Shown here piece after piece: positions 2,966 to 5,781 of a DNA stretch of 64,000 nt. The stretch is from Enterobacteria phage RB18. Numbering within the stretch: the stretch's first letter is position 1; the number at the start of each line of letters is the position of its first letter. A program made the position numbers and the translations under genes. The stretch lies in the sequence record NC_054906.1. One strand, written 5' to 3'. The notes beneath the pieces are model-generated. The model made no database searches, had not been told where the DNA came from, and saw nothing but the letters and a program-made list of their open reading frames with translations.

Positions 2966-3439
2966 TTATTTGATTTGTTTAGCAGACCAAATGCGGTCTT
3001 TAATAATTTTTTGGATGTCTTCAACATACTCTAGGTCATGAGCATGTGGGTTATCTTTAAAACTATAAGCACGAGCTAACTTTTGACCTTCAGTTTTGAT
3101 TACTAAAAGCTCTTTAAGGATAGCTTCATATCTGGAGATAATTCCTTTAACAATATTTTTTTCTTGTGTAGCTTTAGGATCTGCTTTAGGAGCAGGTTTA
3201 CCCGAAGCCTTTGCAAAAGCAGCGCCAGTAGCAACTAAACTTTTCCAGGCCATACTAACTGCATTCCCTGTAAATCCTTCGGCTTTCATATCACGAGCAA
3301 ATTGGAATCGTGATTCATCGGAAGCATCTTTATAGGAATATTTACCCGCGGCAATGGCTGCTTTTGCGACAGCTTGAATTTCGGTGCTAGATGCTTCATT
3401 TAACACCGCTTCATTTAAAAATTGAGCATATGATTTCAT
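2966..3439 (-). CDS. capsid-targeted internal protein candidate (N-terminal CTS-like leader MKSYAQFLNE|A)
   Basis: N-terminus resembles the T4 internal-protein capsid targeting sequence with an L-x-E cleavage motif for prohead protease; own TATAAATA late promoter and AGGAAA Shine-Dalgarno; Ala/Lys-rich. Confidence 0.55.
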   Translation of the reverse strand: MKSYAQFLNEAVLNEASSTEIQAVAKAAIAAGKYSYKDASDESRFQFARDMKAEGFTGNAVSMAWKSLVATGAAFAKASGKPAPKADPKATQEKNIVKGIISRYEAILKELLVIKTEGQKLARAYSFKDNPHAHDLEYVEDIQKIIKDRIWSAKQIK

Positions 3440-3475
3440 CTTATTTCCTGTTTTAATTCGTGGTTTTAATATACT

Positions 3476-3483
3476 TATTTATA
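3476..3483 (-). promoter_or_regulatory. T4-type late promoter TATAAATA (minus strand) for ORF 2966..3439
   Basis: Exact TATAAATA on minus strand, about 37 nt upstream of the ATG, directly after a terminator. Confidence 0.5.
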
Positions 3484-3513
3484 CCAAAAAGCCCCAACCT
3501 TTCGGTCGGGGCT
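3484..3513 (-). terminator. rho-independent terminator (minus strand) after the tRNA-like RNA
   Basis: Minus-strand hairpin AGCCCCGACC-GAAA-GGTTGGGGCT followed by TTTTTGG; paralogous to 2928..2958. Confidence 0.6.
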
Positions 3514-3564
3514 AAGCCTTGCGGCAACCTTGTCGGGGTTCCACCTGCTAAGGCAAGTGTTTGT

Positions 3565-3656
3565 ACGAAACGCCGGGATTCGAACCCGGTTATTAAGCAG
3601 TTGACGCTACTTAATATTTTTAAAAGGCCATATCTCGACCATATCCGAACGTTCCG
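3565..3656 (-). ncRNA. tRNA-like small stable RNA (T-arm and acceptor stem present, no canonical anticodon arm)
   Basis: Minus strand has T-arm CCGGG-TTCGAAT-CCCGG and a 7-bp acceptor-like pairing CGGAACG/CGTTTCG, but the internal region does not fold as a standard cloverleaf; T4-type phages encode such stable RNAs next to the tRNA cluster. Confidence 0.4.
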
Positions 3657-3822
3657 TCAAAAACGCTACTCGGCTTACGGCAAAGATATTTCCTCGAATC
3701 GATAATTCGGTGCGCCGTTTCTGCTGTGATGTAAGAGGGCATCAATAAACGCAAAGATTATTAACGCAATTCCTTACTCAGGGAACATCAGTCCGACGAC
3801 TTACCGGTAGCGACCCGGTTTC

Positions 3823-4173
3823 TTAATATTCTTTTAAAGCATCAATCTGCTCACGGCGTTTACGCCACAAATCAATTGCTTCATACGCGGATTCAGCATT
3901 TCGAATTAGCCGGCATTTATGTAAAGACTTATGATTTTGATATTGTGTAGATAACGGAATTTTATCTAAAAGGTCTTTACGTTCAAAGTATTCGTAACCA
4001 TCTAAGCCAAATGAACGATTTTTAAGAAATTGCCAATGACCATATTCGTTTTCGATATAAACATAATCTGCGTGCTGATAAAGCAAATTAATTACGCGTT
4101 CAGAAATAACAGTGTCATTGTGATTAAAATAGAATGTTAAATCATGAACTACTAAATAAACATTACCTTTCAT
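3823..4173 (-). CDS. hypothetical protein (116 aa) within the tRNA region
   Basis: ORF with ATG start between the tRNA-like RNA and tRNA-Arg. Confidence 0.5.
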   Translation of the reverse strand: MKGNVYLVVHDLTFYFNHNDTVISERVINLLYQHADYVYIENEYGHWQFLKNRSFGLDGYEYFERKDLLDKIPLSTQYQNHKSLHKCRLIRNAESAYEAIDLWRKRREQIDALKEY

Positions 4174-4191
4174 ATTTTCCTCACTTATAAT

Positions 4192-4267
4192 TGGTCGAGG
4201 CAGTAGGGATCGAACCTACGACCCAGGACTTAGAAGGTCCTTGCTCTTCCTTCTGAGCTATGCCCCG
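4192..4267 (-). tRNA. tRNA-Arg (anticodon UCU)
   Basis: Hand-folded cloverleaf: acceptor CGGGGCA/TGCCTCG, D-stem GCTC/GAGC, anticodon loop CTTCTAA, T-loop GGTTCGATCC, encoded CCA. Confidence 0.8.
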
Positions 4268-4880: not shown

Positions 4881-4886
4881 AAATAT

Positions 4887-5537
4887 TTATATATTGTTAA
4901 TTTGATTTAGAATTCTTTTTGCTTGAGTATGACTTACGCCAATATGCTTAGCATATTTAGACAATTCGCCACGTTTAGAAAAATCATATAATTTAGAAAT
5001 TTCTATTCTTCTTTTTCTTTCATCCGCAGAAACTTTTGCTTCGTTCGCTTTTGCTATTTTACGTTTAGCTTCTTGAGAATGAGTTTTACCAGCAAAGCCA
5101 TTCTTCATTAATCCATTTGAAGACCATCCTTTTAATTTTCCGTTAGAATGTGCCTTTTTAACACCCAATGAAATTAATTCGCGCTGCTGATCTGTCATAG
5201 GATAATTATTTATATGGTCCCATCCACCTTCACCTCCAAGTTTTAAATTATACACATCTGGTCTATTTAAAAACTCTTCTGTGACAATATTTTTCTCGGC
5301 TTCAAGCATAGATTCTTTATCGTCAAAATACTCTAATATTTCTTTAGAAAAATTTTCTATACCATATTTATCTTGGGCTCTTTTTAATAATTTACCAGAA
5401 CCCATATATCCATCATCTAAATTTTCGGTAGAATGCACACCAATATAAATTTTATTATTAATTTTATTTGTTATTTTATAAAGATAAAAATGCATATCAG
5501 TCCCTAATAAAGAACTGAGCGTCTCACGACGAGTCAT
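4887..5537 (-). CDS. segB: GIY-YIG homing endonuclease SegB-like, inserted within the tRNA cluster
   Basis: N-terminal GIY-YIG signature YLYKITNKINNKIYIGVHS...GYMGSG; basic C-terminal DNA-binding-like region; sits between tRNA-Gly and tRNA-Ser as segB does in T4-type phages; true start may be the internal ATG at 5495, which has a better Shine-Dalgarno. Confidence 0.8.
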   Translation of the reverse strand: MTRRETLSSLLGTDMHFYLYKITNKINNKIYIGVHSTENLDDGYMGSGKLLKRAQDKYGIENFSKEILEYFDDKESMLEAEKNIVTEEFLNRPDVYNLKLGGEGGWDHINNYPMTDQQRELISLGVKKAHSNGKLKGWSSNGLMKNGFAGKTHSQEAKRKIAKANEAKVSADERKRRIEISKLYDFSKRGELSKYAKHIGVSHTQAKRILNQINNI

Positions 5538-5707: not shown

Positions 5708-5708
5708 G

Positions 5709-5781
5709 CTGGGAATAAAGGACTCGAACCTTTGCATCCTGGAATCAAAATCCAGTGCCTTACCAACTTGGCTAATTCCCA
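5709..5781 (-). tRNA. tRNA-Gln (anticodon UUG)
   Basis: Acceptor TGGGAAT/ATTCCCA, anticodon stem-loop CTGGA-TTTTGAT-TCCAG, T-loop AGGTTCGAGTCCT; CCA not encoded. Confidence 0.8.

Follow-up and report, generated by a model that had tools for sequence, protein, structure and literature searches.

The rnaC ortholog of Enterobacteria phage RB18: comparative evidence for a tRNA-like four-way junction with complementary arm loops

Results

Identification of an rnaC ortholog at the end of the tRNA cluster

The window analyzed in this work is a stretch of 64,000 nucleotides from Enterobacteria phage RB18 (NC_054906.1). On its minus strand, behind the tRNA genes, it carries an element which, in identity and architecture taken together, is very probably an ortholog of bacteriophage T4 rnaC with a four-way-junction fold. 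The alignment of T4 rnaC (species 1 RNA; NC_000866 70908-71046) with window positions 3702->3564 revealed 136 identical bases out of 139 and no gaps. Three substitutions distinguish the two sequences, and two of them preserve the pairing within the second arm of the RNA (G.U to A-U and U-A to U.G). The limits used here are the T4 GenBank coordinates transferred by alignment, and RNA position p corresponds to window position 3703-p. A sequence-only reading of the same DNA had delimited 92 nt (3565-3656) as a tRNA-like small stable RNA of the kind known from T4-type phages and had suggested a comparison with T4 rnaC and rnaD. The kind of RNA was recognized correctly, as the element is the very rnaC suggested for comparison, with rnaD just upstream of it. 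The limits were drawn too narrowly, however, and enclose the 3' two-thirds of a gene of 139 nt.

The T4 record (NC_000866) lists two misc_RNA genes directly after the tRNA cluster, namely rnaD (species 2 RNA, 119 nt) and rnaC (species 1 RNA, 139 nt). The same order is found on the minus strand of the window, where ten tRNA genes identified by ARAGORN and Rfam (5781->4192, all on this strand) are followed by rnaD (3826->3709) and rnaC (3702->3564). Aligned as a whole, the block comprising rnaD, rnaC and the terminator is about 97% identical between T4 and the window. Over the region 3440-3830, Escherichia phage AR1 (Tequatrovirus) has the same sequence (100% identity), and approximately 800 other T4-like phage records are 80-99% identical. 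Due to the near-identity and the synteny with T4 rnaC, the finding concerns an already known gene: judged by its sequence, it is the same gene as T4 rnaC in a sister phage.

T4 rnaC was mapped as early as the 1970s, and T4 strains in which the tRNA region is deleted grow on laboratory hosts. For the RNA itself, RNAC, a late accumulation during T4 infection was confirmed by Northern blot in a 2022 study (PMC9697503), which classed both RNAC and RNAD as late RNAs. The function of the two RNAs was still described as unknown in publications of 2010, 2022 and 2025. In the literature searched, no recent paper giving rnaC a function was found. The coordinates of rnaC, its parts and the flanking features are compiled in Table 1.

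Table 1. Features of the rnaC region in the window (p, position in the RNA).
Feature	Window coordinates	Strand	Remarks
rnaC (species 1 RNA) ortholog, 139 nt	3564..3702	-	136/139 to T4 rnaC; R1 model 166 bits, one copy in the window
Acceptor stem, 5' strand CGAUUCG (p2-8)	3695..3701	-	pairs with 3572-3566
Acceptor stem, 3' strand CGUUUCG (p131-137)	3566..3572	-	abuts the T-stem directly, like tRNA positions 66-72
Arm 1 (p9-78), 70 nt	3625..3694	-	19/26 pairs with compensatory change
Arm-1 apical loop UUGACG (p43-48)	3655..3660	-	complementary to 3606-3601 in 31/31 sequences
Linker UUUAAAAA (p79-86), single-stranded	3617..3624	-	AAAAU at the 3' end of the linker near-invariant
Arm 2 (p87-112), 10-bp stem and 6-nt loop	3591..3616	-	9/10 pairs with compensatory change
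Arm-2 loop CGUCAA (p97-102)	3601..3606	-	other partner of the putative kissing contact
Single A (p113) between arm 2 and T-arm	RNA coordinate only	-	conserved fold
T-arm (p114-130), 5-bp stem CCGGG/CCCGG, 7-nt loop UUCGAAU	3573..3589	-	stem 100% paired
3' tail UACAA (p138-142)	3561..3565	-	G-U-x-C-A-A invariant in 31 sequences
A/U-rich spacer GAAUUA, rnaD/rnaC boundary	3703..3708	-	from the T4 alignment; candidate processing site
Internal strand ACGGAACG (p46-53)	3650..3657	-	half in the putative kissing loop, half in the 3' strand of the arm-1 apical stem
rnaD (species 2 RNA) ortholog	3709..3826	-	aligns to T4 rnaD 3-119 with one 1-nt deletion
Intrinsic terminator of the tRNA-rnaD-rnaC unit, 10-bp stem and UUUUU	3490..3513	-	terminator scan; identical in T4
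3' trailer, 47 nt, with extra hairpins, from rnaC to the terminator	3514..3560	-	conserved in T4; presumably removed from the mature RNA
TATAAATA, match to the T4 late-promoter consensus, candidate promoter of the distal tRNA-rnaD-rnaC unit	4884..4891	-	4 nt upstream of tRNA-Ser; motif match only

Conserved secondary structure and covariation

For the comparative analysis a covariance model (R1) was built, and 31 distinct homologues from a phage genome collection, IMG/VR and one metagenome contig were aligned to it. These homologues represent at least eight genera or lineages: Tequatrovirus, Mosigvirus (RB69), Karamvirus, Kanagawavirus, Moonvirus, Tegunavirus, the Klebsiella phage Marfa lineage and PG7-like Enterobacter phages. 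The fold common to them is a four-way junction made up of a 7-bp acceptor stem, an arm of 70 nt (arm 1), an arm of 26 nt (arm 2) and a T-arm. Its topology is that of a cloverleaf, with larger and different arms in place of the D-arm and the anticodon arm, and the T-arm adjoins the 3' strand of the acceptor without a gap, as it does in a tRNA. Beyond its invariant base helix (AGG/CCU), arm 1 has about 26 bp, interspersed with small internal loops, and a loop of 6 nt as its cap. The final U of the AAAAU in the linker UUUAAAAA is base number one of arm 2.

Within the alignment, 93.2% of the cells form a standard pair, compared with only 37-46% in slid controls for which the 3' partners had been moved by one to three columns. 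Compensatory changes occur in 34 of the 54 pairs, and none of 500 shuffles reached the observed values. With these compensatory changes and 136 of 139 positions shared with T4 rnaC, the conservation of the element is far above chance. The sequence-only reading had named the lack of a conserved structure in related phages among the observations that would speak against its proposal, and such a structure is present. RNAalifold, working on the alignment alone, arrived at the same full-length fold with compensatory changes in 25 of 44 pairs. The full 139-nt RNA folds with -50.1 kcal/mol (z = -4.1), and not one of 200 shuffles folded as well; in this fold the interior is paired with the first 45 nt, and the true 5' end with the 3' strand CGUUUCG.

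Covariation in the acceptor stem includes the replacement of A4-U135 by G-C in 19 of the 31 sequences and the change of G3-C136 to A-U or G.U. The stem is weak, because 28 of the 31 sequences, including that of the window phage, contain two U.U mismatches. In Tegunavirus this tandem U.U is converted to U-A and C-G, and a perfect 7-bp acceptor results (CAGUCCG/CGGACUG). The T-arm CCGGG-UUCGAAU-CCCGG, which had been noticed from the letters alone, is indeed present on the minus strand (3589->3573); its stem, formed by p114-118 and p126-130, is 100% paired throughout the homologues, with G-C pairs swapped to U-A or A-U. All 31 homologues have arms of constant length (70-71 nt for arm 1 and 26 nt for arm 2), although the identity of arm 1 between lineages drops to about 0.4. 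The base helix AGG/CCU of arm 1 never varies and is therefore without covariation support.

Complementary loops of arm 1 and arm 2

The interior of the element had been described as forming neither a D-arm nor an anticodon arm. Neither of them was found, as claimed, but the interior is by no means devoid of structure and holds two conserved arms with complementary loops. The loop sequences UUGACG and CGUCAA are exact complements, and none of the six pairs is broken in any of the 31 sequences. Two independent double changes were detected, UUGAUG together with CAUCAA in Tegunavirus and UUGGCG together with CGCCAA in the Marfa lineage; single-sided changes are lacking among the 31 homologues, and the helix between the loops is 100% paired. 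In phage PG7 the stem of arm 2 is rewritten and its loop is unchanged. The complementarity in all 31 sequences and the two independent compensatory changes point to a 6-bp kissing contact between the loops of arm 1 and arm 2. According to a rough estimate of the helix lengths, closure of the ring within one molecule would require sharp bends in arm 1. The contact could also be formed between molecules rather than within one.

The 3' tail and the T-loop

In a tRNA-like register U138 takes the discriminator position, and p139-141 read A-C-A, compared with C-C-A in a tRNA. The earlier observation that CCA is not encoded in the genome was borne out, the 3' tail being GUACAA, i.e., U-ACA-A. The consensus of the homologous tails is U-x-C-A-A with an invariant C-A-A. 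The Klebsiella phage Marfa lineage encodes a CCA at this place (U-CCA-A); its loci (L025 9221-9372, L023, L030 and L032) are the most divergent homologues, with R1 scores of 95-103 bits. Among the tRNAs of the window, nine out of ten have an encoded CCA. The sole tRNA without it is tRNA-Gln (5708-5781, minus strand), which is followed by tRNA-Leu with a spacer of 0 nt. The 5' end of rnaC differs with the basis chosen: the T4 record extends from U1 to A139, and the geometry of RNase P cleavage predicts C2 as the first base.

Phages of the Kanagawavirus CIP9 type (L003 594-745, L010, L017) have UGCAUGC instead of the T-loop UUCGAAU, and the remaining rnaC is intact. The rnaC family can thus do without a canonical T-loop, and the constraint on the T-loop is lower than that on the two complementary loops.

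Genomic context

Like its T4 counterpart, rnaC of the window closes the tRNA cluster: it follows rnaD on the strand of the tRNAs and has a terminator downstream. The two phages differ upstream of rnaD: in T4 rnaD directly follows tRNA-Arg with a 1-nt spacer only, whereas in the window phage a 116-aa ORF (3823-4173, minus strand) intervenes. The 5' end of rnaD is uncertain in the window phage because the stop codon of this ORF overlaps the aligned 5' end. The 3' end of rnaD reads ...GCACCG in the window, compared with ...GCACCA in T4, and the CCA-like end of T4 rnaD is therefore not conserved. In distant phages which keep rnaC, rnaD is lost or unalignable.

The element had further been placed between two near-identical terminators. 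This could not be reproduced: a terminator scan combined with a repeat search gave no second similar terminator around the element, and the only one on the minus strand lies downstream (3513->3490). Another terminator-like match (3803-3819, plus strand) is the 5' hairpin of rnaD and unrelated in sequence. The trailer in front of the terminator (3514-3560, minus strand) contains hairpins, e.g., CACUUGC-CUUA-GCAGGUG and GCC-GCAA-GGC, and is near-identical in T4. On the upstream side, the TATAAATA late-promoter match at 4891->4884 fits the reported late accumulation of RNAC.

Two neighboring ORFs are worth recording. The interval between tRNA-Gly and tRNA-Ser is occupied by an ORF for a 216-aa homing endonuclease of the GIY-YIG seg type (4887-5537, minus strand; segD in AR1), and T4 carries segB at a place similar to that of AR1 segD. 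Just past the terminator an ORF at 2966-3439 (minus strand) begins with MKSYAQFLNEA, a start which we take to resemble the capsid-targeting N-terminus of T4 internal proteins; upstream of it there is a further TATAAATA late-promoter match (3476-3483, minus strand).

Detection, annotation and distribution

ARAGORN called neither a tRNA nor a tmRNA at 3560-3710. The sequence-only reading had also suggested a covariance search against Rfam. At gathering thresholds this search returned the ten tRNAs only and nothing on the element; at E <= 10 the region 3400-4200 gave sub-threshold noise, the best match being tRNA-Sec with 17.3 bits against a cut-off of 47. Rfam contains no family for rnaC. With R1, members of the rnaC family score 95-168 bits compared with 13-26 bits for true tRNAs.

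A loose pattern applied to viral contigs yielded 56 loci, 47 of which were new; 13 passed the model, and the others were chance matches. The metagenome pattern scan gave a single locus, a Marfa-like variant, and the three pattern matches in bacterial and archaeal genomes all failed the model. In these scans of viral contigs, metagenomes and bacterial and archaeal genomes, members were found only in T4-like phages of Enterobacterales, and the scans give no evidence for the rnaC family outside Tevenvirinae.

In many phage records rnaC is either unannotated or entered as 'hypothetical protein' or 'tRNA-Lys(ttt)'. Examples are AR1_138, a 'hypothetical protein' spanning rnaD and rnaC (window 3620-3742, minus strand) with the note 'no match to nr' in its own record, and the internal 94 nt of phages G4500 and G4507, which are annotated as 'tRNA-Lys(ttt)' (L022 640-733).

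Discussion

Comparison with known RNAs

Like a canonical tRNA (RF00005), rnaC has a 7-bp acceptor, two positions of which are U.U here, and a T-stem of 5 bp that continues it without a break and carries the 7-nt loop UUCGAAU. It likewise forms a four-way junction, lies within a tRNA operon and has x-C-A after the discriminator. The differences concern the two remaining arms, since rnaC has neither a D-arm nor an anticodon arm with a 7-nt loop and possesses arms of 70 and 26 nt with 6-nt loops instead. The junction linkers are 0/8/1/0 nt in rnaC compared with 2/1/4+/0 in canonical tRNA, ACA replaces CCA, and neither RF00005 nor the tRNA detectors make a call.

Transfer-messenger RNA (tmRNA) is a stable RNA which is matured by tRNA-processing enzymes, and its tRNA-like domain resembles rnaC in setting the acceptor/T-arm half of a tRNA on a non-tRNA body. 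Unlike tmRNA, rnaC has no reading frame for a tag, no G3.U70 alanine pair in its covarying stem, no encoded CCA and no match with ARAGORN or Rfam. Among the bacterial Y-like RNAs, YrlA reportedly does not decode and contains a module resembling the T-arm and acceptor of a tRNA. This module is internal in YrlA, the ends of which form a Ro/Rsr-binding stem, whereas the ends of rnaC form the acceptor, and rnaC has no match in Rfam. As to the arm loops, fully paired kissing complexes of 6-nt loops can form. The loops of HIV TAR-TAR* and ColE1 RNA I/RNA II are comparable to those of rnaC in that all six loop bases are complementary. They belong to two molecules and serve antisense control, whereas both loops of rnaC are part of one RNA and presumably have an architectural role.

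Alternative readings of the region

The limits of the sequence-only reading were based on an acceptor-like helix enclosing about 60 nt. An 8-bp helix of ACGGAACG and CGUUUCGU (3657-3650 with 3572-3565) does exist, and the 3' strand of the acceptor was assigned correctly, but the helix is not conserved and the true 5' partner lies 45 nt further upstream at 3701-3695. A 93-nt armless tRNA-like RNA (3657->3565) with this internal helix and an unstructured interior, either as the main form or as an alternative conformer in Tequatrovirus, would be in accordance with the 8/8 pairs in the window, T4, RB69 and PG7, and the helix could compete in Tequatrovirus and PG7. It would also agree with the folding of the segment at -30 kcal/mol (z = -2.5; two of 200 shuffles were as good) and with the weak tRNA-Sec-like alignment mentioned above. 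Across the homologues, however, the helix shows no compensatory change and 82.8% of cells paired. Its G.U pair turns into A/C in Karamvirus, Moonvirus and Kanagawavirus, 5/8 pairs are left in the Tegunavirus, KaAlpha and Kosakonia-305 types, and the small hairpin inside the helix is only 73% paired. Part of the apparent pairing is obtained for free: the ACG of the helix belongs to a conserved loop motif, and a GCGUUU in arm 1 resembles the 3' strand of the acceptor. Moreover, the apical stem of arm 1, the kissing loop and the covarying terminal acceptor would all have to be melted, and the T4 RNA is annotated with 139 nt as opposed to about 94 nt. As a conserved fold the internal helix was rejected on the alignments, which show no covariation and a loss of pairs, and we consider the 93-nt RNA very unlikely. 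The same helix is needed if the region is read as a degenerate or pseudo tRNA-Lys(UUU) with a long variable arm, or as a decoy presenting a CUUUUAA anticodon loop to an anticodon nuclease. Anticodon-loop mimicry was an idea prompted by ARAGORN, which calls tRNA-Lys(ttt) on the 94-nt equivalent in G4500, a variant with a 1-nt deletion in an A-run whose record is annotated likewise, and CUUUUAA is also present in the window at p77-83. In the window neither ARAGORN nor Rfam makes such a call, though, and the implied anticodon stem has 3/5 pairs only. The mimicry was rejected because CUUUUAA varies among the homologues (CUUUGAA, CUUAUCU, CUUACAA, CUCUUAA, CUUCUAA), and the tRNA-Lys reading in either form is scarcely credible. 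Finally, a protein-coding region, as implied by the hypothetical proteins annotated here in AR1 (AR1_138) and other records and by two ORFs overlapping rnaC (3620-3754, minus strand, 44 aa; 3460-3705, plus strand, 81 aa), is almost certainly a wrong assignment. Substitutions fall as paired compensatory changes in the stems, 1-nt indels occur in the linker, the record of AR1_138 itself notes the missing match, T4 annotates a misc_RNA, and Northern blots show the T4 RNA.

At the level of function, rnaC might have no trans-acting role and be a mere structured 3' cap or processing module, by which the transcript of the tRNA operon is stabilized and punctuated. This would be in line with its place as the last structured unit ahead of the terminator in T4 and AR1 and with the growth of T4 strains deleted for the tRNA region. 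But in phages Moon, KaAlpha and phiR1-RT and at locus L012, rnaC is situated directly between tRNA genes and is thus internal to the array; its loops, arm lengths and x-C-A tail are conserved far more tightly than a generic cap needs, and in T4-infected cells the RNA accumulates as a discrete stable species of about 140 nt. A cap without any further role therefore appears quite unlikely to us.

Proposed processing and function

Our own reading is that of a tRNA mimic. As rnaC has no anticodon arm, it cannot decode, and we tentatively suggest, as possible rather than probable, that it is a non-decoding mimic which occupies or titrates a factor for the acceptor/T half of tRNA. Processing of the rnaD-rnaC precursor by RNase E and RNase P is part of the T4 literature of the 1980s. 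In the pathway we propose, rnaC would be transcribed together with the tRNAs and rnaD, starting at upstream promoters, the late-promoter match at 4891 possibly among them, and it would be released by the host tRNA machinery. RNase E would probably cut the A/U-rich spacer; the leader of rnaC resembles the A/U-rich spacers of the tRNA cluster in the window. RNase P would probably cleave between U1 and C2 (U1|C2), guided by the stack of acceptor and T-stem (7 + 5 bp, 12 bp in total). The geometry of an RNase P substrate is given by the predicted 12-bp coaxial acceptor/T stack with U1 at position -1 before C2; most homologues likewise have U at this position, and the CIP9 type has A. The 3' end would subsequently be trimmed to or near the x-C-A tail, and the kissing arms may produce a compact and nuclease-resistant body. 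An RNA of this shape could then occupy or titrate a factor which recognizes the acceptor/T half of a tRNA; the variation of the T-loop in CIP9-type phages weakens the idea that the T-loop itself has to be recognized.

Significance

The combination of a four-way junction, kissing loops and an x-C-A tail is absent from Rfam and from the literature searched, and these features may represent new detail on a known gene. The comparative fold corrects a misreading which is common to the sequence-only reading and ARAGORN, and the R1 model is useful for annotation, as it cleanly separates rnaC from tRNAs. For the function of rnaC, the fold, the kissing loops and the x-C-A tail provide precise handles. 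A more far-reaching view, namely that the architecture was undescribed before and belongs to a dedicated tRNA-mimic effector, e.g., a decoy or inhibitor of a host factor or of a defence nuclease reading the top half of tRNA, appears rather doubtful at present; if it were true, an RNA which has been an orphan for 50 years would become directly testable.
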